A stretch of DNA of 64,000 nt, from contig JAEKLQ010000037.1 in the NCBI GenBank assembly GCA_019509785.1, forward strand, positions 3,324 to 67,323, written 5' to 3'. A model generated the notes under the pieces. The model searched no databases and had not been told where the DNA came from. It was given only the letters and a program-made list of their open reading frames with translations. Position numbers and translations under genes: made by a program. Shown here piece after piece: positions 2,368-52,762 of this stretch. The DNA is from Fibrobacterota bacterium. Its GTDB lineage: Bacteria; Fibrobacterota; Fibrobacteria; UBA11236. Each line of letters starts with the position of its first letter. The stretch's first letter is position 1.

Positions 2368-4514
2368 TGGCGGAGGGCAAACTGGGCAACGGCGCATCGG
2401 ATGGTCCTTCTTTCGATGCGTCAGGGCCGCATGAAGAATCCGCGCATGGCCAGGGTGCCGTAATGTACGGGGAACCGACCTATCCCGCCAACGGGCATTC
2501 CATGGCCCTGCCGGCGGCCCAGGAGGAAAAAGTCAAAGTCCTCCTGGTGGACGATCTGCCGCATAAATTGACCGCGCTGCATGCCATCCTGGAGAACGAG
2601 AACCTGTCCCTGGTGACGGCCACTTCCGGATTCGACGCCTTGCGTAATCTTCTGCGCGAGGATTTCGCCGTCATCCTCCTCGACGTGATGATGCCCGGCC
2701 TGGACGGTTTCGAGACGGCCGCCCTAATCCGCCAGCGGAAGCGTTCGGAGCATACCCCCATCATCTTCATTACCGCCAACCTCGCGGACAACAACCTCTC
2801 CAAGGGCTACTCCCTGGGCGCCGTGGATTACATCTATGCGCCGGTCGTTCCCGAAATCCTGAAGGCCAAGGTGGCCGTATTCGTGGAGTTGTTCCGCATC
2901 AACCGCAAGGTGAGGCAGCAGACCCGCGCCTTGCGCACTTATACCCTCGACCTCGAGGTCGTGAACAAACAGCTCGAGCACCGCACGCGGGAATTGCAAT
3001 CCAGCCGCGAAAGCTTCCGTAATATCGTGGAAAAGAACCAAGAAGGGATCGCCGTGGTGGATGCCGCGGGAAGCATCCGCTTCGCCAATCCCGCTTTCGC
3101 CCGCCTGCTGGGCGAACGGGGAGGAGAAGCTTCCGGTGGCGTGATCGGGAAGCCGTTCCCTTTCCAACTCGAAGCCGGCTCCATCCGCGAATTGGAGCAC
3201 ACCGGCGCGGACGGGAAGCCGATCCATATCGAAGTGTCCTTGGCGGAAACCCAATGGGAAGGCGGAACCGCCTACCTGGCCAGCGTGCGCGACGTAAGCA
3301 TGCGGATCGATGCCGAAGCAGCGCTGCGCGACAGCGAGGAAAAGCTGCGGCAGGCCCAGAAGCTCGAATCCATCGGGCGCCTGGCCGGCGGCGTGGCCCA
3401 TGATTTCAATAACCTCCTCACGGCCATCAACGGCTACACCGACATGGTGCTTGCCAGCTTGGAGGATTCCGATTCCAACAAATCCTACCTGCAGGAAGTG
3501 CGCCGATCGGGGGAACGCGCCGCCGAGCTGACCCACCAATTGCTGGCCTACAGCCGCAAGCAGGTGCTCGTGCCCAAGCTGCTCAATTTGAACAGCGTGG
3601 TGGACAACATGACCAACATGCTGCGCCGCCTGATCGGGGACAATATCGACCTGGTTTCGGCTCCGGACACGGATTTGGGTTTGGTCAAGGCCGATCCCGG
3701 CCAGCTAGAGCAATTGATCATGAACCTGGTGGTCAACGCCAAGGATGCCATGCCGGACGGGGGCCGCATCACCGTTTCCACCGGCATGGAAACCTTGGCC
3801 CAGGATTCGGACGCCCTGCATCCCATCGACAAGGAGTTATCCGTCGTACCCGGCCAGTACGTGGTCCTCAGCGTGGCCGATACCGGCATCGGCATGGACG
3901 ACGATACGCGCAGCCGCATTTTCGAACCCTTCTTCACGACCAAGGAAGTGGGGCGGGGGACCGGCCTGGGCCTCTCCATGGTGTACGGCTTCGTCAAGCA
4001 AAGCGGGGGTAACATCACGGTTACGAGCGCTCCGGGTGCGGGCACCACCTTCCGCATTTACCTTCCCTTGGCGCCCGGCGGAGCCGCCTGGACTCCCGAG
4101 GCCCATGACGGAAGCATCGTCGAATCCGGATCCGAAACCATCCTGCTGGTGGAGGATGAAGCCACCGTCCGCAAGTTCCTCCTGAACGTCCTGACCCAAG
4201 TGGGATACCGGGTGATCGAAGCGGAGGACGGCAAGCACGCCCTGGATATCACCGGGACCCTTACCGAGCCCATCCACCTCCTCCTGACGGACGTGATGAT
4301 GGCCAACATGGGCGGCCGCGAATTGGCGGCCAGGCTCTCGGAACGCCGCCCCGCGATGAAGATCCTTTTCATGTCCGGGTACGCCGAGGACGTGCGGCCC
4401 GATGGATGGGAAAGCCTCGGCGGAGTAGACTTCCTGCAGAAACCCTTTTCCCCGGGCATGCTGGCCCAACGGGTACGGTCGGTTCTGGATTCCACTCGGG
4501 CCTTGGCCGATTGA
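2367..4514 (+). CDS. Hybrid two-component protein: receiver - coiled coil - PAS - HisKA/HATPase_c - receiver
   Basis: N-terminal receiver (VLLVDDLP..LLDVMMPGLDG..YIYAPV), a PAS-like segment (FRNIVEKNQEGIAVVD), H-box HDFNNLLTAINGY, N/G boxes (NLVVNAKDAMP, DTGIGMD, GTGLGLSMV) and a C-terminal receiver (ILLVEDE..LLTDVMMANMGG..FLQKP). Start chosen at the TAATG overlap. Confidence 0.85.
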   Translation: MAEGKLGNGASDGPSFDASGPHEESAHGQGAVMYGEPTYPANGHSMALPAAQEEKVKVLLVDDLPHKLTALHAILENENLSLVTATSGFDALRNLLREDFAVILLDVMMPGLDGFETAALIRQRKRSEHTPIIFITANLADNNLSKGYSLGAVDYIYAPVVPEILKAKVAVFVELFRINRKVRQQTRALRTYTLDLEVVNKQLEHRTRELQSSRESFRNIVEKNQEGIAVVDAAGSIRFANPAFARLLGERGGEASGGVIGKPFPFQLEAGSIRELEHTGADGKPIHIEVSLAETQWEGGTAYLASVRDVSMRIDAEAALRDSEEKLRQAQKLESIGRLAGGVAHDFNNLLTAINGYTDMVLASLEDSDSNKSYLQEVRRSGERAAELTHQLLAYSRKQVLVPKLLNLNSVVDNMTNMLRRLIGDNIDLVSAPDTDLGLVKADPGQLEQLIMNLVVNAKDAMPDGGRITVSTGMETLAQDSDALHPIDKELSVVPGQYVVLSVADTGIGMDDDTRSRIFEPFFTTKEVGRGTGLGLSMVYGFVKQSGGNITVTSAPGAGTTFRIYLPLAPGGAAWTPEAHDGSIVESGSETILLVEDEATVRKFLLNVLTQVGYRVIEAEDGKHALDITGTLTEPIHLLLTDVMMANMGGRELAARLSERRPAMKILFMSGYAEDVRPDGWESLGGVDFLQKPFSPGMLAQRVRSVLDSTRALAD

Positions 4515-7092: not shown

Positions 7093-8787
7093 ATGCGCGA
7101 CATCCTCATCCTACAAACCGCCCGGCTGGGCGACCTCGCGCAAACGGCTCCCATGCTGCGGAGCCTGCGCCGGAACCATCCCGGGGCCCGCCTGACCCTG
7201 GTCGCCCAAGCGGGTCCGGCGGGACTTTTGGCCGATTCGGGACTATGCGATCGCTTGGTTTGCGTGCCTTACGATGAACTCGGATCCCTGGCTGATCCCG
7301 CGGTCGAGAACGCATTCCCGGGCATCGGCTCCTTCGCGGCGGAACCCGCTTTCAGCGCGGAATACGATCTGCTGGTCAACCTCTCCAACGATCTGGGTAC
7401 CGCCGTCCTCTGCCGCCGGATCGCGGCGCGGCGCAAGCTTGGGCGCATCCACTCATTCGAAGGCGAACTGCGTTTGCTCGGTCCTTGGTCCAAGTACTTG
7501 TATGCCATGGTCACGCATCGCCGCGAAAACCTCTTCAACTTGGTGGACATCCAAACCGGAATTGCCGGCCTGGCCCCGCATCCGGAGACCGTTTCCTTGC
7601 CCGTATCCGAAGGCCGCCGCATTGAGGCCCTGGCCCTGTTGGCCGGGTTTGGAATTCGTCCCGGTCGGCTTTTGGTTTCCGGGAAACCGTTGCTCCCAGG
7701 GCAGCCTTTGGCCGCTGGGCAAACCTTGGTTCCTGGCCAAACCTTGGTTGCTTTGCAGGCCGGGGCCAGCTCTTTGCATCGCGCCTGGTCGCTGGAGAAT
7801 TTCGCGGCCTTGGGAGCGGGCCTGAGGCTCGACCCGGGAGTTCAACTGGTGTTGCTGGGGGACGCGCGCGAAAAGGATCGTTGCGCTGAATTGGCGCAGC
7901 GCATCGGCGGCGAGGGCGTAGCCAATCTGGCCGGGGCCACCTCCCTGGCCCAGATGCATGCCGTACTCGCGGTATGCGATCTGCTCATCAGCAATGATAC
8001 GGGTTCCGTACACGTAGCCGCCGCGGCGGGAACCGCCACCCTGGGACTGTATTTCTCCACGGCCTACTACGCGGAGACCGCGCCCTATGGGGCCGGGCAT
8101 ACCGTTATGCAAACTGAAATCGCCTGCGCGCCGTGCGACGCTTCCAACGTTTGCGCGGTGCAAAAATGCCGCGAATTCCTGCCGGCCGGGGCCGTACTGG
8201 AAACCGCGCGTTGGTTGTTGTCGGGGGCCCCTACGGATGCGGCTCCCGCAGCCGCCCCCAATCTTTCCTTGTACCGAAGCCGGTTCCTGAAGGATGGCAG
8301 CCTGGCTTATCTGCCCGTCCGGACCGAAGCCGCCTCCGCCCATTTCCAGGAAGCCTTGCTGGGCCGCTTGCTTTGGCAGGATGCGATGGGCCTCGGCGGC
8401 GATCCGGCTTTGGACGAGTTGCGCTTGCGGCTAAGCAGGGAAGAGCCTTTCCGGCGCCTGCGGGAAACCTTAACGAAGGCGCTGGCGGATTTGGAAATCC
8501 CCGTGCGCCGCGGCCTGGAACTGGCCGTTGCATTGCGCGCCGAGTTTAGCGCCGGGATGCCGGCGCACGAACGCATCTTGTCTTTGCACGGCGAGCTCGC
8601 CGATCTGGCCGTCGTGCTCGCCTCGGCTTCGAAGTCCGCGGGCTTGTGCGGGTCCTTCCTCCATTTCGAAATGATGGACATGGACTACGTCGCCTATCCT
8701 TCCCTGGCCGGGATCCTGGAGGAAAAGTACCGCATGCTGGCGGATTGGCTCGCGCGATTCCGCGCTACGCTTGGCGGCATGGGGTAA
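7093..8787 (+). CDS. Glycosyltransferase family 9 (heptosyltransferase-like) with a C-terminal extension of about 170 aa
   Basis: N-terminus MRDILILQTARLGDLAQTAPMLRSLRRNHPGARLTLV and DLLISNDTGSVHVAAAAGT are GT9 hallmarks. A Cys cluster CAPCDASNVCAVQKC follows. The last ~170 aa are helical and I do not recognise them. Confidence 0.75.
   Translation: MRDILILQTARLGDLAQTAPMLRSLRRNHPGARLTLVAQAGPAGLLADSGLCDRLVCVPYDELGSLADPAVENAFPGIGSFAAEPAFSAEYDLLVNLSNDLGTAVLCRRIAARRKLGRIHSFEGELRLLGPWSKYLYAMVTHRRENLFNLVDIQTGIAGLAPHPETVSLPVSEGRRIEALALLAGFGIRPGRLLVSGKPLLPGQPLAAGQTLVPGQTLVALQAGASSLHRAWSLENFAALGAGLRLDPGVQLVLLGDAREKDRCAELAQRIGGEGVANLAGATSLAQMHAVLAVCDLLISNDTGSVHVAAAAGTATLGLYFSTAYYAETAPYGAGHTVMQTEIACAPCDASNVCAVQKCREFLPAGAVLETARWLLSGAPTDAAPAAAPNLSLYRSRFLKDGSLAYLPVRTEAASAHFQEALLGRLLWQDAMGLGGDPALDELRLRLSREEPFRRLRETLTKALADLEIPVRRGLELAVALRAEFSAGMPAHERILSLHGELADLAVVLASASKSAGLCGSFLHFEMMDMDYVAYPSLAGILEEKYRMLADWLARFRATLGGMG
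7696..7749 (+). repeat. Three tandem 18-nt (6-aa) units inside the GT9 inter-domain linker (PGQPLA / AGQTLV / PGQTLV)
   Basis: The last two units gctgggcaaaccttggtt and cctggccaaaccttggtt match at 15 of 18 positions. A more diverged in-frame unit precedes them. Confidence 0.5.
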
Positions 8788-9929: not shown

Positions 9930-12193
9930 TCCGTAAGCTCATCTTCCAGGGTTTCGGGAAGTTCGGGCGGGAAACCTTCGACCTGGCGCCCGTCACCGTG
10001 GTCTTCGGGCCCAACGAAGCGGGTAAAACCACTTTCTTCGACGGCTTGTTCCAGGCCGTATGCCGGCCCAGCGAAGCCAAGAAATCCGGGAAAATCCTGA
10101 AAGAGCGGTATGGCGCCGCCCGCCAGGTCAGCGCCGTCATGGCTAACGAATCTCCCATCACCGACGAAGAGTTCCTGAGTTTGTACGCCATCCGCGCGGG
10201 CGATCTCAACCTGCGCCTGGATCAGGGAACCGATTGGATCGAGAAGCTCAAGGCGCGGCTCTTCCATGGGGGGATCGATCCCGCCGTTCTCATCGCCGAG
10301 TTCCAGAAGCGGAGTTCCGATTCGCGGGCGGTCGTCGTCAACAAGGAATTGGAGAAGGCCCGCGAGGCCGCGGCGCGTACCCGATCGGATCTGGAAAAGC
10401 TCCGCCGGGAACGCGAAGGGCACCTTGCGCGCGAACGGGAAGTAGCGGCCATGGAAGAATCCCTGACCGGCCTGCGCGCGCGTATGGAAGCGGCCCTCGA
10501 GGAGGCGCGTACCATGGAGGCCGAGCTGGAATCGGAGGAGCGCATCGCGCGGCGCCAGAAATTGGCGGCCCACCTTGCTCGCTGGGAAGAATGGTCGGAC
10601 CTGGAGGCGGAAGCGCGTTCGCTGGAATCTTTCGCCGAAGATCGCCGCGCCGAGTTCGAAAACCTGGCCGCCGCCACGCGTACCCTGGCCGAAGCCGTCT
10701 CCTCAGGCCGGGGGAAACGCGATCAATGCGCCGAGCTTTTGGCCGAATCCCGCGCCGAAGCGCGCATGGCCCGGGAGGCCGTCGACGCCGCCGTCTCGCG
10801 CGCGGCCCTGGCCCGCCGTCTGTCCGACGCCTCCCGCGCCTTGCTTGCCGCCGGGGGCGGGGGATTGGGTCGGGGCGGGATGATCACATCTTCCGCATGG
10901 ATCGCGGGCGCCCTGGCCGGAGGCATCGCCGCCCGCGGGCTCCTGGCCCTGGGCGCCATACTCGCGGGTCTGGTCGGGGCCGCGGTTTCGCTCTTCGCTT
11001 CCTTGCGGATGGGGCAACGCGCGGCCGCGCGCCGGCGCGAGTCGTCCTTGGCGGCTTGGAAGGACGAATGGATGGCCGCGGGAAACCCGTCCGAGGGCGT
11101 GGCCGGCCTGTCCTCTTTGGAAGGTTTCACCAAAGCGATGGACGAGAAGGCGCGCGAGAAGGATGCCGCCGAGGCGCGCTCCCGCGAGGCCGCGGCCCGC
11201 TGCGAAACGCGCCAGACCGATTTAGAGCGCGCCGAAGCCGAATGGGGCCGCGGAAAAGACGCGGAAGAGTCCGCGCGCAGGGCCGAACGGGCGTGGCTGC
11301 ATTCCCGAGGTTGCGAGACTTTCGCGGAATACGATCGTAAAACGGCGCGGGTGGCGCAGCTGCGCGGGGAGATCGGCAAGCGCCGGGCCGAACTGGATGT
11401 ATTGGCCGCGGGCGGCTCCCTGGAAGCTTGGCGGGCCGAGGTTCAGCGCAAGCTGCGGGATTTGGATCGGGACGGGGTGCCTGCCGCAGGCCGGGACGAT
11501 GCCGCGCTGCAACGGTTGCGGAACCGCAAGGCCGAGCTGCAACGCGAAAGGGAAGAGGTCGCCCGCCGGGAAAAGGACATGATCGATCGCCGGTCCGGCG
11601 CGGCGGGGGAAATCCGCGGGGCCATCGGCAAATTGGCGGGGGAAATGGTGGCCGCGGAGGATGGCCTGGCCGCCGCCGAAGAAATGGTACGTCGGCTCGA
11701 GTTGGATAAACGCGCGGCCGCCTTAGCCCTGTCCATTTTCCAAGAGATCGGAACGGGGGCGGATATGCTCCTGGCCGGCTTGTCCGGCGAGATCGGCAAC
11801 ATGTTGGCGCGCATCCTGCCCGGCGAACGCGCGGTGGCCTTGGCCGGTCTGGAAGAAGATCGCATCCGGGCCGGGGATGCCGCCGGCACGGCGCGCGCCC
11901 TGCCCAACCTCTCCACCGGGACCCAACATGCGCTGGTGCTGGCCGCCAAGTTGGCCATGGCCCGCAAGCATCGCGAGGGTCCCGGCCTGTTCGTGCTCGA
12001 CGAGCCGTTCCTGGCCATGGACGAGGCCCGCGAGACGCGCGCGCTGGAAATGTTGCGCGAGTTCCATCTACGGCATGGCTGGCAATTCATCCTCCTGACC
12101 AAGGAGGCGCGCCTGCGGGACAAGATGGGATCCCTTTTCGCCGATGTCCGCATCATCGAGTTGCAGGCGTCGGGTAGGGAAACTCCCGATTAA
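9926..12193 (+). CDS. SbcC/Rad50-like AAA ATPase with coiled coils and a central predicted transmembrane hairpin (YhaN-like)
   Basis: Walker A VVFGPNEAGKTTFFDG. Long Glu/Arg/Ala-rich coiled-coil regions. Signature-like LSTGTQHAL and Walker B LFVLDEPFLAMDE near the C-terminus. A hydrophobic stretch ITSSAWIAGALAGGIAARGLLALGAILAGLVGAAVSLFASL lies at about 10880-11005. Confidence 0.8.
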   Translation: MIRKLIFQGFGKFGRETFDLAPVTVVFGPNEAGKTTFFDGLFQAVCRPSEAKKSGKILKERYGAARQVSAVMANESPITDEEFLSLYAIRAGDLNLRLDQGTDWIEKLKARLFHGGIDPAVLIAEFQKRSSDSRAVVVNKELEKAREAAARTRSDLEKLRREREGHLAREREVAAMEESLTGLRARMEAALEEARTMEAELESEERIARRQKLAAHLARWEEWSDLEAEARSLESFAEDRRAEFENLAAATRTLAEAVSSGRGKRDQCAELLAESRAEARMAREAVDAAVSRAALARRLSDASRALLAAGGGGLGRGGMITSSAWIAGALAGGIAARGLLALGAILAGLVGAAVSLFASLRMGQRAAARRRESSLAAWKDEWMAAGNPSEGVAGLSSLEGFTKAMDEKAREKDAAEARSREAAARCETRQTDLERAEAEWGRGKDAEESARRAERAWLHSRGCETFAEYDRKTARVAQLRGEIGKRRAELDVLAAGGSLEAWRAEVQRKLRDLDRDGVPAAGRDDAALQRLRNRKAELQREREEVARREKDMIDRRSGAAGEIRGAIGKLAGEMVAAEDGLAAAEEMVRRLELDKRAAALALSIFQEIGTGADMLLAGLSGEIGNMLARILPGERAVALAGLEEDRIRAGDAAGTARALPNLSTGTQHALVLAAKLAMARKHREGPGLFVLDEPFLAMDEARETRALEMLREFHLRHGWQFILLTKEARLRDKMGSLFADVRIIELQASGRETPD

Positions 12194-14338: not shown

Positions 14339-16675
14339 ATGCAACCCATCCGCAGCGCCACCGTCATCGGCTCCGGCATCATGGGATCCCAGATCGCCGC
14401 CCACCTGGCCGGATGCGGCATCCCCGTCCTGCTCCTCGACATCCCCACCGAAGGGAAGGACCGCAACGCGGTGGCCAACAAGGGTCGAGATGGGTTGAAG
14501 AAGGTGAAGCCCTCGCCGCTTTATTCCACCGAAGCCCTGGATTTGATCAGCACCGGCAATACCGCCGATCATCTGGCCGAAGCGGGCAAGACGGATTGGA
14601 TCATCGAAGCCATTATCGAACAGCCCAAGCCCAAGCAGGAGTTGTTCCAGAAGCTGGCCCCGCTGATGGGGCCGGATACCATCCTGGCCACCAACACTTC
14701 GGGCATACCGCTCAAGGTATTAGGCGAAGGCCTGCCGGAATCGGTGCAACAGCGTTTCATCGGCACGCATTTCTTCAATCCGCCGCGCTACCTGCGGCTA
14801 GTGGAAGTCATCCGCGGACCCAAGACCTCGCAGACCACCGCCGACCGCATCGAGCATGTCCTCAATGCCGTGCTCAACAAGGTGCCCGTTCCCGCCTTGG
14901 ATTCGCCGACCTTCATCGCCAATCGCATCGGGGTGCAAGCCATGGTGGCGACCGTGAAAATCGCCAAGGAGATGGGCCTGTCCGTGGAAGAAGTGGACGC
15001 CTTGACCGGGCCACTACTAGGCCGGCCCAAGACCGGCACCTTCAAGCTTGTGGACCTGGTGGGCATCGATACCCTCGGCCATATCATCAACGGCCTCAAG
15101 CAGGCCTTCCCGAAGGAAGACTTCTCCATCGATCCCGTGATCCAGGGCCTCATCGACAAGAAATTCTTCGGGCGGAAATCCAACGCGGGTTTCTATCGCA
15201 AGGGCAAATCGAAAGAGGACATGGAGGTCGTCGACCTCAAGACCGGCGAGTACCGCCCCGAAGCCAAGGCCCGCTTCGAAGAGCTGAAGGACATCTCCAA
15301 GGAAGAGAACGCGGAGAAGAAGTTCCGCAAGTTGTTCGCCGCCCAGGGCCGCGGCGCCGAGGCCGCCCAACGCATCCTGTCTTCAACCTTGGCCTATGCC
15401 GCCACCGTCGCGCCCGGCATCACGGAAGAACTGTCCTACGTCGACGAAGCCATGGAACTGGGCTTCGGCTGGGAAACCGGACCCTTCAAGATCATCGACG
15501 CCATCGGCCCGGAAGCCTTCCAGGCGGCCTGCGCCAAGTTCAAGATCGAGGCCCCCGCCTGGCTTTTCCAATCCGTAGGCGGCGATGCCCGCACCTATCA
15601 GGTCGAAGGCGGCCGGGTCCTGATCCGGGACTTGCCCAGGACGGGATCGGCCGGTGGCCGGCATGAGATGAAGTCCCGCGGCTTCAACCTCGCGCGACAT
15701 CGCGCCAGCCATAAGCCGGTCATCGCCACCACCGATGCCACCCTGTGGGACATGGGCGACAAGATCCTCTTGCTCGAATTCCATTCCAAGATGAATTCCA
15801 TGGGCCCCATCTCCCTCGACATGATCATGAAGTCGGTGGATAAGGCCAACGACGGCTGGGACGGCCTCGTGATCGGCAACCAGGGCGCCAACTTCTGCGC
15901 CGGCGCCAACATCGCCATGGTGCTGATGGACGCCGCCAACGGCGAATTCGACAACGTCGATCAGGCCATCCGCATCTTCCAGAAGGCCAGCATGGCCATC
16001 AAGTATTCCGGCGTGCCGGTCATCGTTTCGCCGCATAACATGGCTTTGGGCGGCGGCTGCGAATTCGTTTTGCATAGCAATCGCCCCGTGCTTTCGCCCG
16101 AAACCTATCTGGGCCTAGTGGAAGTGGGCGTGGGGCTTCTGCCCGCCGGCGGCGGGACCAAGGAATTGGCATTGCGCACCTACCAAAGCGGGCGCGGCCC
16201 CTTGACCTTGCCCGCCCTCGCCAAGGTCTTCGAGCTCATCGCAACCGCCAAGGTCTCGACCAGCGCCAAGGAAGCTTTCGAATTGGGATACCTCGACAAG
16301 CGCGCCGTCATCGCCGCGAACGAATCGACGCGCCTGGATCAGGCCAAGGCCGAAGCCATGGCCATGGCCCGCGCCGGCTATCGCCCGCCCGCGCCCGCCC
16401 TGAAGATCGAGGTGTTGGGAACCGAGGCCATCGCCGCCTTCGAGACCGGTATCTTCATGCTGCGCGAAGCGGGCTACGCTTCCGAGCACGACGCCTATAT
16501 CGCCCGCGAGGTCGGCCATATCCTGGCCGGCGGCAAGGTTACCGCGGGAACCATGGTGGACGAGGATTACCTGCTGGAATTGGAGCGGGAAGGTTTCCTG
16601 AAGCTGGTGGGGACGAAGAAGTCCCAGGAGCGGATCGAGTTCATGCTCAAGAAGGGCAAGCCGTTGAGGAACTAG
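14339..16675 (+). CDS. fadN: Bifunctional 3-hydroxyacyl-CoA dehydrogenase / enoyl-CoA hydratase (dehydrogenase domain N-terminal, FadN-type order)
   Basis: N-terminal NAD fold VIGSGIMGSQIAAHLAGCGIPVLLLDI and HFFNPPRYLRLVEV. The C-terminal crotonase motif is GANFCAGANIAMV. GGAGGAG lies upstream of the ATG. Confidence 0.9.
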   Translation: MQPIRSATVIGSGIMGSQIAAHLAGCGIPVLLLDIPTEGKDRNAVANKGRDGLKKVKPSPLYSTEALDLISTGNTADHLAEAGKTDWIIEAIIEQPKPKQELFQKLAPLMGPDTILATNTSGIPLKVLGEGLPESVQQRFIGTHFFNPPRYLRLVEVIRGPKTSQTTADRIEHVLNAVLNKVPVPALDSPTFIANRIGVQAMVATVKIAKEMGLSVEEVDALTGPLLGRPKTGTFKLVDLVGIDTLGHIINGLKQAFPKEDFSIDPVIQGLIDKKFFGRKSNAGFYRKGKSKEDMEVVDLKTGEYRPEAKARFEELKDISKEENAEKKFRKLFAAQGRGAEAAQRILSSTLAYAATVAPGITEELSYVDEAMELGFGWETGPFKIIDAIGPEAFQAACAKFKIEAPAWLFQSVGGDARTYQVEGGRVLIRDLPRTGSAGGRHEMKSRGFNLARHRASHKPVIATTDATLWDMGDKILLLEFHSKMNSMGPISLDMIMKSVDKANDGWDGLVIGNQGANFCAGANIAMVLMDAANGEFDNVDQAIRIFQKASMAIKYSGVPVIVSPHNMALGGGCEFVLHSNRPVLSPETYLGLVEVGVGLLPAGGGTKELALRTYQSGRGPLTLPALAKVFELIATAKVSTSAKEAFELGYLDKRAVIAANESTRLDQAKAEAMAMARAGYRPPAPALKIEVLGTEAIAAFETGIFMLREAGYASEHDAYIAREVGHILAGGKVTAGTMVDEDYLLELEREGFLKLVGTKKSQERIEFMLKKGKPLRN

Positions 16676-16690
16676 TGATAGAAGGCAAAG

Positions 16691-16796
16691 AAGGGTAAAG
16701 GGTTAAGGGTCAAGGGTCAAGGGCGGAGACCGGAATGGATCGACCTACCGGCGCGCAGCGCCGCCTGCACCCTTAACCCTTAACCCTTTACACTTA
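16691..16796. repeat. AGGGTNN-heptamer palindromic intergenic element, copy 1 (fadN-fadA spacer)
   Basis: The G-arm A AGGGTAA AGGGTTA AGGGTCA AGGGTCA AGGG (16691-16723) faces the C-arm CACCCTTAACCCTTAACCCTTTACACTT (16769-16796). About 23 bp pair with one mismatch, and the spacer is about 45 nt. Confidence 0.8.
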
Positions 16797-16833: not shown

Positions 16834-18012
16834 ATGAGTGAAGCAGTCATCGTAGCGGGGGTCCGCACTCCCGTCGGCAAAGCCGGCAAAGGGTCCTTCA
16901 CCCACGTCCGTTCCGATACCCTGGCGGCCATCACCGTGCGCGAAGTGCTCAAGCGCGCGCCGGGAATCAAACCCGAGGATATCGAGGATCTGATCCTCGG
17001 ATGCGCCATGCCGGAAGCGGAACAAGGCATGAACGTGGCCCGCATGGTTGGCCTCATGTCCGGCCTGCCCGACAGGACCGCGGCCATGACTATCAACCGG
17101 TATTGCTCCTCGGGATTGCAATCCATCGCCCTGGCCAGCGATCGGATCAACCTGGGGGACGCGGAAGCCATCCTGGCGGGCGGGCTGGAGAGCATGTCCA
17201 TGATCCCCATGGGCGGTCATAAGATCGCGCCCAACCCCGAACTGGTGGGCAAGCGCCCGGAATCGTACATGACCATGGGGCTGACCGCGGAACGCGTGGC
17301 CGCGAAATTCGGCATCACGCGCGAACAACAGGATGCCTTCTCGCTGCGGTCGCACCAGAAAGCCTTCGCCGCCATCCAAGCCGGGAAATTCAAGGACGAA
17401 ATCGTCCCGGTGGTGTGGACGGAGACGCAATTGGATCGGCATAAGAAAGAGAAGTCCATCGAGCGCACCTTAGCCCAGGACGAAGGCCCCCGCGCCGATA
17501 CGACCTTGGAAGCCTTGGGCGGGCTTAAGCCCGCCTTCAAGAACAACGGTACGGTGACCGCGGGCAACAGCTCCCAAGTGAGCGATGGCGCGGCCATGAC
17601 CCTGGTGGTCTCCCGGAAGTTCGCCGAGTCCCGGGGCTTAAAGCCCATCGCCCGCCTGGTCAAATTCGCCGTCGTCGGTTGCGCGCCGGAAATCATGGGC
17701 ATCGGCCCGGCGGAGGCCATTCCCGCGGTCCTCAAGAAGGCGGGCCTTTCCAAGGACCAGATCGATCTCATCGAGTTGAACGAAGCCTTCGCGTCCCAAA
17801 GCCTGGCCGTGCTCAAGGCCATCGACTTCCCGGAAGAGAAGGTGAACGTGAACGGCGGCGCCATCGCCTTGGGCCATCCCCTGGGTTGCACCGGCACCAA
17901 GCTCACCGTGACCCTGCTGAACGAGCTCAAGCGCCGCGGCGGCAAGTACGGCATCGTATCGATGTGCATCGGCGGTGGCATGGGCGCGGCCGGCCTCTTC
18001 GAAATGCTGTAA
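16834..18012 (+). CDS. fadA: Acetyl-CoA C-acyltransferase (3-ketoacyl-CoA thiolase)
   Basis: Active-site region NRYCSSGLQSIA, NGGAIALGHPLGCTG and CIGGGMG. GGAGAGG lies upstream of the ATG. Confidence 0.9.
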   Translation: MSEAVIVAGVRTPVGKAGKGSFTHVRSDTLAAITVREVLKRAPGIKPEDIEDLILGCAMPEAEQGMNVARMVGLMSGLPDRTAAMTINRYCSSGLQSIALASDRINLGDAEAILAGGLESMSMIPMGGHKIAPNPELVGKRPESYMTMGLTAERVAAKFGITREQQDAFSLRSHQKAFAAIQAGKFKDEIVPVVWTETQLDRHKKEKSIERTLAQDEGPRADTTLEALGGLKPAFKNNGTVTAGNSSQVSDGAAMTLVVSRKFAESRGLKPIARLVKFAVVGCAPEIMGIGPAEAIPAVLKKAGLSKDQIDLIELNEAFASQSLAVLKAIDFPEEKVNVNGGAIALGHPLGCTGTKLTVTLLNELKRRGGKYGIVSMCIGGGMGAAGLFEML

Positions 18013-18136
18013 CCCCACGGTTTCCCCGTTAGGACCCTCGGCCCATCCCGGAGCCGGGGGTTTTATAGTGCCATGAGTTATATTTCGGCCACTCATGGCC
18101 ATCGTTTCCCCTGGTTTTTCCGTTCCCCCCGAACCC

Positions 18137-21100
18137 ATGCGATTCCAACGCGTCCTTTGGGCTTGGGCCGCCTGCGCGTGCCTCCTCCTGGTATCCCTTT
18201 TCATCTGGTCTTGCAACACCGCTCCCGCGGACGAAAACAGCATCACCCTGAATCTGGATTCATCCCGGGTCGGGAAATTCGATAGCGTCCTGGTCGAGAT
18301 CTTCAACGGGGCCGCGCCCGCGGCCGGGGATACGACCCGCCCCGTACAGTCACAAACCATAAAGCTGCAGGCCTCCACCAAGCAGATCACCATCAAGCTG
18401 AGCTCGAAGGTCAAACCGGATTTCTCGGTAGTGGTGACCGGCTACTCCGGGGATCAAGTCGCCTATCGTAACCTGCACACGGTGGACGGGTTCGGCTCGC
18501 CGGATAGTACCAAGCCCGCGGTGCTCCTCATCTCCCGCATCTTGGCCGATAGCCTTACCCTGAACGTAGGGGAGACGCGCTCGCCTGCGATCAAGTTCGA
18601 ACCCGAGAATCCGGGGGACAAGCGCATCGTGCTTAAATCCTTGGATACCACCCTGGTCGCCGTGGCGGGGGATAGTATCAAGGGCCTCGCCGCCGGCAAG
18701 GCCCACGTCGAAGCCTTGACGGCGGATGGCAAGATCAAGGTGACCTTCACGGTCAACGTGGCCGTGGTGCGCGTGACCGGGCTGCTGGCGGATACCCTTC
18801 AGCTTAGGGTGGGGGATAGCGTGGCGCCCGAGGTCCGCATCGTACCGGACAATGCCACCGACAAGGAATTTACCGAGGAAAGCCTGGACAGCGGCTTGAT
18901 AGCGGTGGATGGCAAGAAGGTGATCGGCCTCAAGGCCGGGCAGGCCAAACTAGTCCTGGCGTCCCGCGATGGCGGGGCCAAGGATACCCTCATCGTACGC
19001 GTACGGGTGCCGGTGGGCGGGATCGGCGCTAAGGATCAAACGAAAGAGGTGGGGGATCGATTCCCTCCCGTGCTGGAATTCCAACCGGCGGACGCGACCC
19101 GTAAAGGATATACGCTAACGACCAGCGACAGTTCCAAAGTGGCGGTGGTCGGGGATAAGGACAGTCTCGAGGCCATGTCCGTCGGCTCGGCGAAGATCAC
19201 GGTCAAGACCAATGACGGCGGCTTCACCGCGACATTCACGGTGGACGTGGTGCGTAAGGTTATCCATGTGAAAGCCATTACGTCGGATAGCCTGCGGGCC
19301 TTGCCGGGCGATACCTTGGCGGTCCAGCTGACTTTCGATCCGGCCAATGCCACCGACCAGGGATTCACCCTCAAGAGCCTGGACACGGCTTTGGCGGAGG
19401 TGGATGGGAACAAGTTGATCGCGAAGGCGGTCGGGAAGGCGAAGATCGTGGCCGCCACGGTGGACGGGGATCTCCGCGATACCATCGACTTTACCGTCGC
19501 GCTCGCCAATTTCATTCAGGACATCAAGCCGATCACCAGTTCCAAATGCGCCCCTTGCCACATCCCCCCGGCGACCTTCAATTGGACCGATTCGGCGCAG
19601 CTCGTGCGCAAAGGCCCGATAGCCATGCTCCGGCTCACCCTTCCGGATACGGCCGTTGGCCACATGCCGGTGGCGGGCGCTACGGGCGGGCCGATCACCC
19701 AGCGGGAATTGCGGGTGCTCTTGGGATGGCTAGGGCGCGTCTCGGTCCCCTTGGCTTCCATCGCGGTCAAGGATACCGAGGTTAACATGGGCGATACCCT
19801 GGCCGCGCCTATCACCTTCAATCCCGTCAACGCGTCCAATCAGGATTTCATCTTGACCACCCTGGATACGTCAATCGTGACCGTCGTGGGTAAGCGCCTG
19901 GTCGCGGCGGGCGTGGGTTCCACGTCCATAGACGTCCTTCTCGACGAGGGCGGCCGCCATTCCAAATTCAAGGTTACGGTGGACCTGCCCTCGTTCCTGA
20001 AAAACGTTCAACCCATCACCACCGTCAAATGCACGCCCTGCCATGGCCCCGATCAGGTCTTCAACTGGCAGGATTCCTCGGCCCTGATAGGGGATGGCTC
20101 CAATGCCTTGGATCGCTTGACGCGGGACGCCAACGCGCCCGGGAAGATGCCGCTGAAGGGCGCGCCCAACGGCGATCTCACCCCGGCCGAGCTGCGCATC
20201 CTGCTGACATGGTTGAACTCGAAAGTGGTTCCCCTCAAAGGCATCACCGTTCCAGACGACAGCCTGGTGCTGGAGACCCAGAAGGAACCGGCCATCGTCT
20301 GGAATCCCGCCAACGCCACCAACAAATCCTTCATCCTGGTCAGCGCCGATACGGCCAAGGTGGGCATCCTGGGTACCCGTATGCTGGGCAAGGCCCTGAG
20401 TGCAGGGACAACGGTGGAAGTGCGCGCCATCGACGGGGGATTCTCCAAGCTGATCTTGGTCAAGGTGCTTCCCATCAAGGTCGATTCGATCGCCGTGCAC
20501 GATACCGCATGCGCGGTCGGGGATTCGGTCTACCTGAAGCCGGTCTTTTTCCCGGCCAATGCGTCCAACCAGGCCTTCACGGTGGTCTCCAAGATCGCCA
20601 GCCCCAAGGTCAAGATCGATTCGGGTTTCAAAATCACCGGCATGATTCTCGGCAAGGACACCTTGGAAGCCTCCTCCACCGACGGCGGCAAGAAAGCCCG
20701 CTTCGTCTTCACGGTGGGCCCGGTTATCCCGAAGTCGATTATCATCCCGGATACCAACGGCACTGTTTCCGGGGCCCTGATCAGCCCCCGCTTGATCTGG
20801 AATCCGACCACCACCACCGATAAGTCGTTTACCTTGGCGATCACCGCGGGCGATACCGTCAACGTGGCCGCGGTGCGCGGAACCCAGTTGCTCCCGAAGG
20901 CCTCGGTGGGCCAGGTAACCGTGGTAGCGACCTCGATCGCCGATCCCACCGTCAAGGCGACCTTCAAGTTCAGCGTGGGACCGGTCGGCGTCATCAGTTT
21001 TTCGACCGCCCCGATTACGACGAACATCGGATTCCTCCTGGCCCCATCCATCACATGGAACCCGGCCAATGCCACCAACAAGTCAATCGCCTTGACCCTG

Positions 21101-39230: not shown

Positions 39231-39317
39231 AGGGTTAAGGGTACAGGGTACAGGGTAAAGGGTGAAAGTCGGGGTATTCCAAAACCCTAAACCCTTTACC
39301 CTTTACCCTGAACCCCT
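39231..39317. repeat. AGGGTNN-heptamer palindromic intergenic element, copy 2 (between the TPR-transglutaminase gene and ilvD)
   Basis: The G-arm AGGGTTA AGGGTAC AGGGTAC AGGGTAA AGGGTGA (39231-39265) faces the C-arm AAACCCTAAACCCTTTACCCTTTACCCTGAACCCCT (39282-39317). Pairing is at unit level with mismatches at the variable positions. Confidence 0.75.
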
Positions 39318-39375
39318 AGGTCAATCGAAAGGGAAATAGTAGCAAACAGGCGCCGGTTCTACCCGCTATCCCGGC

Positions 39376-47072: not shown

Positions 47073-48311
47073 ATGGCAAAGCTCTTTATCGAGGATCTAC
47101 AGGTAAACGGCAAGCGCGTCCTGATGCGGGTGGATTTCAACGTCCCCATCAAGGACGGCAAGGTCGAGGACGAGAAGCGGATCGCCGCCGCATTGCCCTC
47201 CATCAAGTACCTGCTCGATAAAGGCGCCAGCGTGGTGCTGATGAGCCATTTGGGCCGCCCCGACGGCAAGCCCAACGCCGAGTTCAGCCTCAAGCCGGTC
47301 GGCGCCAAGCTGCAGGAGCTGCTCGGCAAGCCCGTCCAATTCGTCGACGATTGCGTGGGCCCCAAGGCCGAAGCCGCCTGCGCCTCCTTGAAGCCCGGCG
47401 GAGTCATCCTGCTCGAGAACGTCCGTTTCCATATCGAGGAAGAAGGCAAGATCAAGCTCGAGGACGGCACCAAGCTCGTGGCCGACAAGGACAAAGTGGC
47501 CGCTTTCCGCGCAGCCCTGTCCAAGCTCGGCGACGTGTACGTCAACGATGCTTTCGGATCCGCCCATCGCGACCATAGCTCGGTTTCGGGCATCAGCTTG
47601 CCCCAGCGCGCTTGCGGGTACCTGATGAAGAAGGAACTCGACTTCCTGGGCGGCGCCATCGAGAATCCCAAGCGCCCCTTCGTGGCCATCATCGGCGGAG
47701 CCAAGGTGAGCGGCAAGATCGACGTGATCCAACAGATGTTGCCCAAGGTGGACAAGCTGATCATCGGCGGCGGCATGGCCTACACTTTCGCCCGGGCCAA
47801 GGGCCTGGAAACCGGCAAGAGCCTGGTCGAGCCGGATCGTATCGCCCTAGCCAAGGAACTCCTGGAGAAATACGGCGACAAGCTGATGCTCCCGACCGAT
47901 TGCTTCATCACCGACAAATTCGACTTCAAGGCCCGCACCATCGGCCAGGGCAAGACCTGCCGCATGACCGAAATCCCCAAGGAATGGGAAGCCATCGATA
48001 TCGGCCCGGAAACCTCGGCCGCCTACGCCAAGGTCATCGCCTCCGCCAAGACGGTCTTATGGAACGGGCCTATGGGCGTATTTGAAGTCGAAGCTTCGGC
48101 TAAGGGCACCTTCGCCGTGGCCCAGGCCCTGGTGGAAGCCACCAAGAACGGCGGCACCACCGTGGTCGGCGGGGGAGACTCGGCCAGCGCCATCAAGAAG
48201 GCCGGCCTATCGAAACAGGTAAGCCACGTATCCACGGGCGGCGGCGCATCGCTTGAGTTCTTGGAAGGCAAGCCGCTTCCCGGAGTCGTGGCGTTGACGG
48301 AGAAGCCGTAA
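47073..48311 (+). CDS. pgk: Phosphoglycerate kinase
   Basis: RVDFNVPIKDGKV, LMSHLGRPDG, AIIGGAKVSGKI and VVGGGDSA. Confidence 0.95.
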   Translation: MAKLFIEDLQVNGKRVLMRVDFNVPIKDGKVEDEKRIAAALPSIKYLLDKGASVVLMSHLGRPDGKPNAEFSLKPVGAKLQELLGKPVQFVDDCVGPKAEAACASLKPGGVILLENVRFHIEEEGKIKLEDGTKLVADKDKVAAFRAALSKLGDVYVNDAFGSAHRDHSSVSGISLPQRACGYLMKKELDFLGGAIENPKRPFVAIIGGAKVSGKIDVIQQMLPKVDKLIIGGGMAYTFARAKGLETGKSLVEPDRIALAKELLEKYGDKLMLPTDCFITDKFDFKARTIGQGKTCRMTEIPKEWEAIDIGPETSAAYAKVIASAKTVLWNGPMGVFEVEASAKGTFAVAQALVEATKNGGTTVVGGGDSASAIKKAGLSKQVSHVSTGGGASLEFLEGKPLPGVVALTEKP

Positions 48312-48313
48312 GA

Positions 48314-48404
48314 AGAGGGTATAGGGTTAAGGGTATAGGGTACAGGGTTAAGAAAGCGGATATTCGGTTTTCCCATACCCTTAACCCTGTACCCTATACC
48401 CTTC
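48314..48404. repeat. AGGGTNN-heptamer palindromic intergenic element, copy 3 (pgk-tpiA spacer)
   Basis: Positions 48331-48352 (GGGTATAGGGTACAGGGTTAAG) and 48380-48401 (CTTAACCCTGTACCCTATACCC) are perfectly complementary over 22 bp with a 27-nt spacer. The G-arm has five GGG tracts on a 7-nt period. Confidence 0.85.
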
Positions 48405-48446
48405 CCCCTAACGAAGATCAGACCACACCGAGGTATCGAGGTATTA

Positions 48447-49208
48447 ATGCGCAAGAAAATCATCGTCGGCAACTGGAAGATGAACAAGAACGTGGAAGAG
48501 TCCGCCAAGCTCGCCACCGAACTGGTGGCCGCCGTTAAAGGCCAGGCCTTCGCGGAAAAGGTTGAGATCGGCATAGCGCCCACCTTTCTGGCGCTCGATC
48601 GCGTCGCCGGCATCCTCAAGGGCTCGCCCATTAAGCTGGCCGCCCAAGACGTCCACTTCGAGAACCAGGGCGCCTTCACCAGCAAGGTTTCCGTGGACAT
48701 GCTCAAGTCCCTCGGGGTAACCCACGTGATACTGGGCCATTCCGAACCCCGCACCCTGTTCGGCGAAACCGATGCCGCCGTCAACAAGAAGACCCTCAAG
48801 GTCCTGGCCGAAGGGCTTACGCCCATCGTCTGCGTGGGCGAAACCTTGGCCGAGCGCGAATCCAACGTCACCGAGAAAGTGGTCGGAACGCAGGTGCGGG
48901 CCGCCTACCAGGGCGTATCCGCGGCCGATGCTGCCAAAACCGTCATCGCCTACGAGCCTGTCTGGGCCATCGGCACCGGGCGCAATGCCAGCGATGACCA
49001 GGCCCAGGCCGTGCACAAGTTCATCCGCGGCCTGCTGTCCGAAATGTATGGTTCCCCGACGGCCGAAGCGATCCGCATCCAATACGGCGGCAGCATGAAG
49101 CCGGAAAACGCCGCGGGACTTCTGAAGCAGCCCGACGTGGATGGCGGGTTGATCGGCGGCGCCGCCTTGAAGGCGGATGCCTTTTTAGGTATTATAAGGG
49201 CCGCTTAA
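48447..49208 (+). CDS. tpiA: Triosephosphate isomerase
   Basis: IVGNWKMN, ILGHSE, AYEPVWAIGTG and GGLIGGAALK. Confidence 0.95.
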   Translation: MRKKIIVGNWKMNKNVEESAKLATELVAAVKGQAFAEKVEIGIAPTFLALDRVAGILKGSPIKLAAQDVHFENQGAFTSKVSVDMLKSLGVTHVILGHSEPRTLFGETDAAVNKKTLKVLAEGLTPIVCVGETLAERESNVTEKVVGTQVRAAYQGVSAADAAKTVIAYEPVWAIGTGRNASDDQAQAVHKFIRGLLSEMYGSPTAEAIRIQYGGSMKPENAAGLLKQPDVDGGLIGGAALKADAFLGIIRAA

Positions 49209-49731: not shown

Positions 49732-49815
49732 GCGGTTGTGGTGAAATTGGTAGACACGCCAGCTTGAGGTGCTGGTGGGGGCAACCCCTTCGCGGTTCAA
49801 GTCCGCGCAACCGCA
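49732..49815 (+). tRNA. leuU: tRNA-Leu (anticodon GAG), long variable arm, no encoded CCA
   Basis: Hand-folded cloverleaf. Acceptor stem GCGGTTG/CAACCGC plus discriminator A. D-arm GTG-AAATTGGTAGA-CAC. Anticodon stem CCAGC/GCTGG with loop TTGAGGT. 15-nt variable arm with GGGG/CCCC. T-arm CGCGG-TTCAAGT-CCGCG. Confidence 0.9.
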
Positions 49816-49875: not shown

Positions 49876-50733
49876 ATGTTCTTCCGCCTCCTTTATTTGG
49901 TCCCCAAGAATTGGCTCAGTTCCTTCGTCGGGGCCCTCGTACGGGCCCGCTACCCCTTCGGCCTGCATACCGCGATCCGGGACTGGTTCATCCGCTTCTA
50001 CCGGATCGAAACCGCCGAAGCCGAGTTCCCCGTCGATCGCTATCCCACCATGGGGGAATTTTTCGTCCGCCGCCTCAAGCCCGGGGCCCGGTCCATCGCG
50101 CCCGACGCTCTCGTCTCTCCCGTTGACGGTACTTTGACCCAAGCCGGCCGCTTCGATCCCGAGCGGCCGAAACTCAAGCAGATCAAAGGCATCGACTACG
50201 CCTTGGCCGATTTAATCGGGCCCGGCTGGGATCTTCCGGAATACGCCCAAGGCGGCTTCCTGACCATCTATCTTGCCCCCTACAACTACCATCGCATCCA
50301 TGCGCCCATAGCGGGCCAGGTCACCCGGTGCGCGCATATTCCCGGCGCCTTATGGCCGGTCAATACCTGGAGCGTCTCGCATATCCCCGGCCTTTTCGTC
50401 GCCAACGAGCGGGTTATCGTCGAGTTGGAAGGGGAAACCGGAAAAGCGCTGGTGGTCATGGTGGGCGCCACCAACGTCGGCCGCATCACCCTGGATTTCC
50501 ATCCGGGCATGATCGGCAACCCACGGCCCCTCCGCAGCGCTTCCCATTGGGCTCCACCCACCCCACTACGATTGGCCAAGGGCGAAGGCCTGGGATGCTT
50601 CGAGCTGGGATCCACCGTCATCCTCATCCTCTCGCGCGCGCTCGCAAGCAAGACGGGGGCTCGTTGGTTCGACGTCGCTTCCCGGGGCGTCGCCGGCGAA
50701 GCCATCCGCATGGGCCAGGGGCTGGGGTCTTGA
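49876..50733 (+). CDS. psd: Phosphatidylserine decarboxylase proenzyme
   Basis: YNYHRIHAP and the self-cleavage motif FELGSTVIL near the C-terminus. Confidence 0.9.
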   Translation: MFFRLLYLVPKNWLSSFVGALVRARYPFGLHTAIRDWFIRFYRIETAEAEFPVDRYPTMGEFFVRRLKPGARSIAPDALVSPVDGTLTQAGRFDPERPKLKQIKGIDYALADLIGPGWDLPEYAQGGFLTIYLAPYNYHRIHAPIAGQVTRCAHIPGALWPVNTWSVSHIPGLFVANERVIVELEGETGKALVVMVGATNVGRITLDFHPGMIGNPRPLRSASHWAPPTPLRLAKGEGLGCFELGSTVILILSRALASKTGARWFDVASRGVAGEAIRMGQGLGS

Positions 50734-51629: not shown

Positions 51630-52472
51630 ATGATCCATTCCTTGGCATTACGCCTGTGCGCGCTTTCCGTACTCCCGATATTGGCGGGATGCCTGTGGCC
51701 CCAACCCGCCGCCGCTCCCAAGCCCTTATCGCAAAGACTGACCTGGTGCGGCCGGCAAGCCGGGCTAATCCTGGACTCGGTCCCGTCCGATACCGGCAAT
51801 CCCTCGGCCTGCATCCGCATTCAACGTTTGGAATTCCCGGGAGCGACTACGCCATTCCGGATGGAATTGCGCCAGTACCGGGATCCGGTCCGGGCCTTCG
51901 TCGCATGGGAGGGCTTAGCCTTACAAACCCGGCCGCAAGAGGGATGCGTTCGGATCGGATCCCGGTGGGCCTTCATCCATGCCGCCTACGTGGGATTGAC
52001 GGATTCCTCGGCGGGCGAATTATATCCAGAGGAATTCCGGGAACGGCTGGCCGCCGCCGATGAACCTGCCATCCTGTTTCCGGAGCAATTCAAAGCCTTC
52101 CCCCTGCTGGGCCGAATTCCGGGCAGCGAGCGGATTTCCATGAAGGATTTCCTAGGCGGGCCCTGGAGCGGTCCGGTCTTCTCGGTCGGATATCCCTGCC
52201 ATGGGGACACGGCCATTGCCTTCCGCGCCTCGGCTCGCGATGCGGCCTCCTTGGCTGGCTGGATGAATCCTTGGAAATTCTCCGCGCCCGGCCGGGCGGC
52301 CGATTTCACCCTGGAAAAGCGCTACCAGGGGGAAGATGAATTCGGGCGGCCCATGATTCTCAGGGCATTTTCGGACGGAATATTGGGAATTTCGGGTTGC
52401 TATGATTCCGATTTAGGCCAGGAATATGCTGAAAAAATGCGAAAAATGCAGGTTTTTTGGCATGACCCTTGA
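51630..52472 (+). CDS. Hypothetical lipoprotein
   Basis: MIHSLALRLCALSVLPILAGC|LW carries a canonical lipobox. The ATG at 51630 lies 43 nt after the upstream stop. Confidence 0.6.
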   Translation: MIHSLALRLCALSVLPILAGCLWPQPAAAPKPLSQRLTWCGRQAGLILDSVPSDTGNPSACIRIQRLEFPGATTPFRMELRQYRDPVRAFVAWEGLALQTRPQEGCVRIGSRWAFIHAAYVGLTDSSAGELYPEEFRERLAAADEPAILFPEQFKAFPLLGRIPGSERISMKDFLGGPWSGPVFSVGYPCHGDTAIAFRASARDAASLAGWMNPWKFSAPGRAADFTLEKRYQGEDEFGRPMILRAFSDGILGISGCYDSDLGQEYAEKMRKMQVFWHDP

Positions 52473-52576
52473 ATTTCGTCAAAAAATCGGAATTCGAATT
52501 GACATTTGCCCCTTTTTGTTGCAATTTACAGGATCGAAGGGCAATTTACGCCACTTTCAGCATCGGAGGTCGTCCC

Positions 52577-52762
52577 ATGAGCACCATCCAAGCCTTGGAA
52601 AACGAAATCGGATTACTCAAGGAAGAATACGAGAAATTCGAGCGCGGCAATAAATCCGCGGGAACGAGAGCGCGGAAAATCCTGCAGAACATCAAGCGTC
52701 TGTCCCAGGAAATCCGCGTGACCATTCAGACCGTCAAGAAGACCGAAGATAAGCCGAGCTAA
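52577..52762 (+). CDS. Small basic 'histone H1-like' DNA-binding protein of the type annotated in Bacteroidetes (61 aa)
   Basis: MSTIQALENEIGLLKEEYEKFERGNKSAGTRARKILQNIKRLSQEIRVTIQ contains the core GN-K-[AS]-AGTR-[AV]-RK..Q..K....E.R that I recall from such proteins. GGAGG lies 7 nt upstream of the ATG. The N-terminal extension in the ORF track (from 52469) was not used. Confidence 0.6.
   Translation: MSTIQALENEIGLLKEEYEKFERGNKSAGTRARKILQNIKRLSQEIRVTIQTVKKTEDKPS

Follow-up and report, generated by a model that had tools for sequence, protein, structure and literature searches.

Dispensable, fast-evolving heptamer hairpins between co-oriented genes of a Fibrobacterota-like bacterium belong to a published class of G-rich repeats

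The 64,000-nt stretch of DNA analysed here (the window: contig JAEKLQ010000037.1, positions 3,324 to 67,323) comes from an uncultured Fibrobacterota-like host and contains three palindromic elements built of tandem 7-nt AGGGTNN units, one of which lies in the spacer between pgk and tpiA (copy 3, 48314-48410, + strand). Judged by their sequence, these elements are members of the class of G-rich heptameric repeats published by Rehm et al. 2015 (PLoS One 10:e0144275, PMC4692102), so that the class is not new and the original prediction, which had taken the element for an undescribed one, has to be corrected in this respect. Comparison with relatives makes it clear that evolution keeps the hairpin rather than the G-quadruplex (G4), and for this reason the RNA hairpin is taken as the working form. 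By analogy with repetitive extragenic palindromic (REP) sequences, the elements are probably dispensable, fast-evolving intercistronic RNA hairpins that would act as passive local modulators.

Copy 3 is located inside a gap-pgk-tpiA-secG cluster, with gap 5' of pgk and secG 3' of tpiA. The upstream cistron pgk (phosphoglycerate kinase, 47073..48311, + strand) ends with the stop codon TAA at 48309-48311, and about 4 nt past it begins the G arm (48316..48352), which consists of the five units AGGGTAT AGGGTTA AGGGTAT AGGGTAC AGGGTTA (48316-48350) followed by AG. A loop of 27 nt, AAAGCGGATATTCGGTTTTCCCATACC (48353..48379), separates it from the C arm of inverted NNACCCT units (48380..48410), which ends in CCCTTCCCCCTA; the inverted C-rich array CCCATACCCTTAACCCTGTACCCTATACCCTTCCCCC spans 48372-48408. 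A perfect duplex of 22 contiguous bp can form between 48331-48352 and 48380-48401, and over the longer arms 48322-48352 and 48380-48410 pairing is possible at 29 of 31 positions. The layout is as had been described. The native spacer is kept 3' of the insert (48411..48446, ACGAAGATCAGACCACAC...), with a Shine-Dalgarno-like GAGGT before the ATG of the downstream cistron tpiA (triosephosphate isomerase, 48447..49208, + strand), and it is homologous to the entire 28-nt spacer of the element-free relative L209. The tpiA Shine-Dalgarno region also carries a tandem duplication, CGAGGTAT-CGAGGTAT, at 48428-48446, where relatives have a single copy (CCGAGGTATCCC in L201).

The recurrence of this architecture at two other sites was confirmed. 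Copy 1 (16691-16796, + strand) has a fadB-like 3-hydroxyacyl-CoA dehydrogenase/enoyl-CoA hydratase gene on one side and a thiolase gene on the other. Its G arm (16691..16722, AGGGTAA AGGGTTA AGGGTCA AGGGTCA AGGGC) starts 15 nt past the fadB-like stop, its 41-nt loop (16723..16763) has GC-rich sub-hairpins of its own, and its C arm (16764..16796, ACCCTTA ACCCTTA ACCCTTT ACACTT) ends 38 nt before the thiolase ATG at 16834. Copy 2 (39231-39318, one position longer than first reported) occupies the spacer between a TPR-transglutaminase gene and ilvD, both on the minus strand. Read on the + strand, it has a G arm at 39231..39263 (AGGGTTA AGGGTAC AGGGTAC AGGGTAA AGGGT), a 20-nt loop at 39264..39283 and a C arm at 39284..39318; the latter serves as the 5' G arm on the minus (mRNA) strand. 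On that strand the hairpin begins about 58 nt past the upstream stop and ends 27 nt before the ilvD ATG at 39204. A position just past a stop codon, which had been claimed for every copy, is thus true of copies 1 and 3 and not of copy 2.

All three elements are intergenic, each with four to five AGGGTNN units, a loop of 20-41 nt and an inverted NNACCCT array, and the flanking genes are co-oriented at each of them, as seen from the map of open reading frames (ORFs) and Pfam scans; the description of a dispersed intergenic family is borne out. In every copy, 27-39 nt separate the end of the C arm from the start codon downstream. The pattern GGGTN3GGGTN3GGGT (at most one mismatch) has 17 matches in the window versus 0.47 expected, a number reached in none of 100 shuffles, and all 17 fall in the three elements. 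Among periods 5 to 9, period 7 is the only one for which the window holds arrays of at least four units.

Rehm et al. described GGGAATC repeats in Xanthomonas and GGGGA(C/T)T repeats in Nostoc PCC 7120 (PMC4692102). Each Xanthomonas genome has about 185 such arrays, 89-93% of them intergenic and mostly between aligned ORFs, with under-representation between divergent genes, a modal length of four units and 70-75 convergent pairs capable of forming stem-loops. The G-rich arrays lie at most 50 bp after a stop when on the coding strand, or at most 50 bp upstream of ORFs when on the non-coding strand. Most arrays are transcribed, they differ between Xcc and Xac, and no association with mobile elements was found for them. 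Circular dichroism of GGGAATC and GGGGAYT repeats gave K+-dependent G4 and i-motif signatures in vitro. The function, in the words of these authors, "remains to be elucidated", and our follow-up literature search found no later functional work on G-rich heptamer repeats.

The window elements share with this class a tandem 7-nt unit with a tract of three to four G and partly free positions (four to five units per arm in the three copies), an intergenic location (about 90% in the published class) between co-oriented ORFs, and a convergent arrangement with the G arm 5' and the C arm 3' on either strand. In both, the G arm comes soon after a stop (4 and 15 nt for copies 3 and 1, and 58 nt for copy 2) and the C arm soon before the next ORF. 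Both are also variable in length and sequence among close relatives, here in L211 versus copy 1, in L202 versus copy 3 and at the empty sites of L201, L212, L121 and L209. The density of three elements per 64 kb is of the same order as that of the Xanthomonas arrays. The window elements differ in their AGGGTNN unit, in the heterogeneity of units within one arm and in their host. The present analysis adds to the class orthologous sites that are empty, an orthologue lacking G3 tracts, and polarity quantified across phyla and viral contigs.

Comparison with relatives shows what is kept in these elements and what is not. A BLAST search of the window against 120 genome loci gave no match, and therefore no locus from the same genome is among them. 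The sister genomes with empty sites have about 88% nucleotide identity to the window in pgk and tpiA. Among the pgk-tpiA junctions recovered, the heptamer hairpin is present only in the window and in L202/L203 (PGK 93%). The element-free spacer measures 3-28 nt in P0010 (from gene coordinates), L210, L209, L201 and L121, being 18-28 nt in the last four with 18 nt in L201, and in L205/L207, whose PGK shares 80-83% identity with that of the window, pgk and tpiA overlap by 4 nt. In the window and in L202/L203 the hairpin is found between the stop codon and a shared native spacer, CGAAG.ACAGACCACAC, which is the whole spacer of L209. By nucleotide identity of pgk and tpiA, L202 is an outgroup to the window, L201 and L121, and therefore either a single gain was followed by losses or the element was gained repeatedly at one site. 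The site of copy 1 is empty in L212/L213 and that of copy 2 in L201. Given that it is absent from sister genomes, the element is dispensable and lies outside conserved operon logic.

Where an orthologue exists, the arms have changed. The L202 arms are made of AGGTNNT units (GG only, with no G3 tracts), in which GGTTTTAGGTGCTAGGTATTAGGTGTTAGGGGTGC pairs with GCACCCCTAACACCTAGCACCTAAAACC; the L202/L203 arms match perfectly save for one extra unit, with a fold of -52.4 kcal/mol, and position, 7-nt period and complementarity of the arms are as in the window element. In the L211 orthologue of copy 1, next to a 98% identical thiolase gene, the flanks and about 90% of the loop are conserved and the number and order of units differ. 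The arms thus evolve faster than loop and flanks, in the manner of microsatellites, with complementarity and 7-nt register kept and the GGG tract not. Selection on structure rather than copying had been proposed for the variable positions; the retained complementarity agrees with this, while the gain and loss of units and the absence of the whole element from sister genomes do not. The view of the GGG tract as the selected feature is contradicted by the GG-only orthologue and by an AATGGNN/NNCCATT hairpin of like architecture in an unrelated genome.

Other hairpins occur at the same junction. The pgk-tpiA spacer of L204 (1820-1881) carries an unrelated GC-rich palindrome, GCCACCCCGGGGCC/GGCCCCGGGGTGGC, and those of L122-L128 (about 2900-3000) carry a different GC-rich hairpin, GGCCCCG...CGGGGCC. 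Different hairpins have been acquired repeatedly at this junction, which fits the idea that a hairpin is tolerated or useful at this place.

The folds computed for the elements in RNA are single long hairpins of -55.4 kcal/mol for copy 3, -57.5 for copy 1 and -49.1 for copy 2 on its mRNA strand, with z-scores of -5 to -7 and similar values for the opposite strands. The corresponding DNA hairpins reach -24 to -35 kcal/mol. As had been pointed out, the G arms satisfy the G3N4 quadruplex rule, on the + strand in all three copies and on the minus strand in copies 2 and 3; the minus-strand arm of copy 1 has only three G tracts. In silico, isolated G arms fold into three-tetrad G4 of -8 to -14 kcal/mol (ViennaRNA with its G4 option). 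When G4 folding is allowed for the full element, the hairpin is still the minimum free energy (MFE) structure, more stable than the G4 of the G arm alone by roughly 40 kcal/mol in RNA and 15-26 kcal/mol in DNA. Because the hairpin is so much more stable, the proposed alternation between hairpin and G4 would not take place at equilibrium, and only a brief co-transcriptional G4 is possible. A functional G4 would call for at least four G3 tracts at orthologous sites and a competitive fold, and is not indicated given that the L202 orthologue has GG units and the hairpin wins by about 40 kcal/mol.

The hairpins are also distinct from intrinsic (Rho-independent) terminators, in which a GC-rich hairpin is immediately followed by a U-tract, as no T run follows the C arm at any window copy. 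A scan of 47800-48800 gave no promoter-like or terminator-like site. No Rfam family corresponds to the element, whether gathering or E-value thresholds are applied: the sole match in the window at the gathering threshold is a tRNA, and below threshold the element resembles microRNA-precursor hairpins only.

The search for AGGGTNN arrays with an inverted partner was extended beyond the window. A scan of one genome per prokaryotic species for the exact pattern AGGGTNN x3 + AGGGT gave at least 120 matches, and IMG/VR viral contigs gave at least 120 loci (L214-L333) with the AGGGTNN x4 pattern, giant-virus metagenome-assembled genomes (MAGs) among them; the counts in this and the next paragraph apply among the matches listed. 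The prokaryotic matches include Planctomycetota, Acidobacteriota, Chloroflexota, Cyanobacteriota, Bacteroidota, Desulfobacterota, Myxococcota, Omnitrophota, candidate phyla radiation (CPR) lineages and others, and many of them have the design of G arm, spacer and C arm with lineage-specific free positions; AGGGT-type arrays thus occur in many phyla. Of 150 G-rich-oriented arrays from the window and the genome matches, 49 have a partner arm downstream and none upstream; in the viral contigs the figures are 19 and 1. The G arm is thus 5' of the C arm in 68 of the 69 arrays with a partner arm. Crude ORF maps place 78 of 145 arrays between genes, and paired elements, those of the window included, lie outside long ORFs in 34 of 37 cases, usually abutting ORF ends.

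The arms remain complementary while their variable positions change, as had been supposed: pairing is possible at 511 of 711 variable positions in 36 paired elements drawn from many phyla, with all four Watson-Crick types represented, and the median fold is -67.6 kcal/mol. The constancy of AGGGT across these scans is imposed by the search pattern, and the idea that GGGT is fixed across phyla was discarded as an artefact of it, the Xanthomonas unit being GGGA-T and that of L202 AGGT. In an unbiased 407-kb sample of tpiA loci, no more than two period-7 arrays occur, and one of them is a paired AATGGNN hairpin. At L144:2726-2830, on an unrelated soil metagenome contig, a hairpin of like design has its G-richer arm, of AATGGNN units, ahead of an arm of NNCCATT units, and G3 tracts are therefore no requirement for hairpins made of heptamer arrays.

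The scans also returned arrays of other kinds. Long tandem GGGTNNN arrays of 16-19 units occur at L032:5669-5777 (Aliivibrio fischeri ES114 chromosome II), L047:230-359 and L030:2348-2456; no partner arm accompanies that of L032, a stretch of partial complementarity follows those of L030 and L047, and all three look more like plain heptamer microsatellites. Some arrays at other loci lie within long ORFs. The commonest unit among the viral-contig matches listed is GGGTTTA, i.e., the plant-type telomere repeat TTTAGGG, and some viral matches may be eukaryotic or telomere-like DNA rather than members of the bacterial class.

REP, BIME and REPIN sequences of Enterobacteria and Pseudomonas resemble the window elements in being dispersed, strain-variable intergenic palindromes, often located after stops within operons, that form RNA hairpins, and in function REP comes nearest to them. 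A REP is a short imperfect palindrome, 20-40 nt in length, that carries a conserved GTAG head and is mobilised by RAYT transposases, whereas the window elements have arms of 30-35 nt made of tandem heptamers, without a short imperfect palindrome or a 5' GTAG, and no RAYT (Y1 transposase) gene was found among the window ORFs scanned against Pfam. According to the summary of Liang 2015 given in PMC12306157, ribosomes are stalled by REPs that lie closer than 16 nt to a stop codon. REP325 stabilises the upstream mRNA and is a partial Rho-dependent terminator (bioRxiv 10.64898/2026.03.23.713779).

In the preferred reading, the elements are non-coding DNA inserted into gene-to-gene spacers, and their arms lengthen, shorten and vary as 7-nt units are gained and lost and yet remain mutually complementary. 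If the operon is transcribed through the element, the G arm would emerge first, whichever strand is transcribed, and the C arm would pair with it to give a long, very stable RNA hairpin of roughly 25-30 bp. Like a REP, this intercistronic hairpin could block 3'-to-5' exonucleases and thereby stabilise the upstream cistron. At pgk-tpiA it would break the tight translational coupling seen in relatives and, being less than 16 nt after the stop, copy 3 may hinder ribosomes as they terminate or bring about partial termination. On balance, upstream expression would rise relative to downstream expression.

Several points weigh against a modulatory role of the hairpin. The element has been lost without replacement in sister genomes, and because of this any effect would be small or neutral. 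Its functional steps are drawn from analogy throughout, and among the three copies only copy 3 is closer than 16 nt to a stop codon. Rehm et al. sought a regulatory role in Xanthomonas and found none (PMC4692102). A plain hairpin model also leaves the near-absolute polarity (68 of 69 among the matches listed) and the preference for 7-nt units unaccounted for. These two features, the former seen in roughly a dozen phyla and in viral contigs, could reflect a dedicated mechanism, to which we assign a small chance: a co-transcriptional fold of the G-rich arm or an avoided C-rich Rho-loading site, making the elements polarity-controlled intercistronic valves, or a widespread enzyme or binding protein that makes or reads heptamer arrays. 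One idea is that the C-arm-first order would transiently expose a C-rich, G-poor Rho-loading site; another is that it would put Shine-Dalgarno-like G-rich repeats beside start codons.

Among the other explanations, we consider it unlikely, though worth keeping in mind, that the elements are a neutral by-product in which polymerase slippage favours 7-nt units and template switching makes palindromes, with no effect on expression and persisting only because spacers tolerate them. The rapid gain and loss of units, the loss of whole elements in relatives and the lack of a function found in Xanthomonas (PMC4692102) agree with this, as does an excess of bacterial heptamer microsatellites that has been attributed to polymerase geometry, in a work cited in PMC4692102. 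Slippage alone, however, does not predict the 68:1 polarity among the matches listed, arm complementarity kept with all pair types, or the under-representation between divergent genes (PMC4692102). An origin as miniature mobile elements of MITE or REPIN type, with the arrays as terminal inverted repeats and copies inserted by a transposase or RAYT-type enzyme encoded elsewhere, appears improbable. Like MITEs (miniature inverted-repeat transposable elements), the window elements are small and non-coding, have ends resembling terminal inverted repeats and show insertion polymorphism between relatives, here between genomes about 88% identical in pgk and tpiA nucleotides. There are three dispersed copies in 64 kb, their fixed polarity is as expected from a single orientation of end sequences, and the copy 3 insert is bounded by TAA-GAAG and TAACGAAG, where the empty site of L209 reads TAACGAAG. 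The imperfect TAA(C)GAAG direct repeat at copy 3 was considered as a target-site duplication and did not generalise: over 35 elements among the matches listed, the flank match was 3.06 versus 3.00 in permuted controls (p about 0.39). Unlike MITEs, the elements appear to lack a conserved internal sequence, and their arms vary as microsatellites do, both from copy to copy and from orthologue to orthologue. The three window copies show hardly any relationship in their loops and flanks, with p about 0.05 for the loops of copies 2 and 3, p about 0.01 for the right flanks of copies 1 and 3, and chance level for the remaining comparisons. The tail ACGAAGATCAGAC, shared by copies 1 and 3 (p about 0.01), was considered as part of the element and is more likely native spacer, given that the whole spacer of the element-free L209 is that sequence; an ungapped search gave no further copies of it. 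The Pfam scan of window ORFs gave no transposase, RAYT or integrase, the GTAG head is missing, and Rehm et al. reported no association with mobile elements (PMC4692102).

It is regarded as quite improbable that the locus works as a DNA or RNA switch between the hairpin and two other folds, a three-tetrad G4 in the G arm and an i-motif in the C arm, and thereby controls transcription, translation or the access of Rho. Each G arm does have at least four GGG tracts at 4-nt spacing and folds into a G4 in isolation, the related GGGAATC and GGGGAYT repeats form G4 and i-motifs in vitro with a modal length of four units (PMC4692102), and the G-arm-first polarity (68:1, among the matches listed) gives a co-transcriptional period before the C arm exists. 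Nonetheless, the MFE hairpin is far more stable than the G4, the L202/L203 orthologue is GG-only, the AATGGNN hairpin has no G tracts, the minus-strand arm of copy 1 has too few of them, and i-motifs in RNA are weak (PMC4692102). The G4/i-motif possibly survives solely as a transient co-transcriptional state and not as a conserved feature. Very doubtful is the view of the heptamers, single-stranded or duplex, as iterated sites for an RNA- or DNA-binding regulator. The strict 7-nt register with a fixed core and free positions and the constant placement of the C arm before start codons would suit such an array, and protein binding has been proposed for the TAACTGA direct repeats found upstream of start codons in Beggiatoaceae (PMC4679880) and for the Nostoc heptamer repeats near recF/recO (bioRxiv 10.1101/2022.06.06.494920). 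TAACTGA repeats and the cyanobacterial STRR heptamers of Calothrix and Anabaena (Mazel et al. 1990, as cited in PMC4692102) are likewise tandem 7-nt units in intergenic positions near gene ends; they differ from the window elements in unit and phylum and in being mostly direct rather than inverted. Against binding sites, the core is AGGT instead of AGGGT at an orthologous site, lineages vary widely in their units, and pairing would bury the sites in a very stable helix.

Other features of the window were recorded. Its G+C content is about 61%, and its closest named protein relatives are Fibrobacteria/Fibrobacteres MAGs, with 88-89% identity for the thiolase. Directly after the thiolase stop, at 18046-18066, a conventional terminator-like hairpin, CCCGGAGCCGGGG, is followed by GTTTTAT; it likely marks the end of the fad operon, unlike the heptamer hairpin within that operon, and because of this stem and TTTT site the organism probably uses ordinary terminators elsewhere. 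Seven further G3N1-7 matches, unrelated to the heptamer elements, lie at 2245-2279, 9949-9971, 10853-10879 and 19704-19735 on the + strand and at 7180-7207, 16384-16400 and 18013-18049 on the minus strand; by position they are mostly inside ORFs, and 18013-18049 is in the spacer after the thiolase gene. Downstream of the cluster with copy 3, a tRNA-Leu(GAG) at 49732-49815 separates secG from psd. The window is otherwise syntenic with relatives here, with psd at 49876-50733 and two more + strand ORFs up to an Hc1 gene at 52469-52762. An island at 49.8-52.5 kb, suggested by a greedy ORF map, was dismissed once a proper ORF list showed psd and its neighbours intact and syntenic.

Any explanation of the G-rich heptamer inverted repeats has to accommodate three constraints: they are dispensable insertions in otherwise tightly coupled housekeeping operons, they keep register and complementarity and not G3, and their polarity is, among the matches listed, essentially invariant across distant lineages. 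The emphasis moves in this way from G-quadruplex chemistry to effects at the level of the hairpin or of transcription polarity. For the annotation of the window, the element is to be treated as an ordinary REP-like spacer hairpin and not as a new regulatory system.

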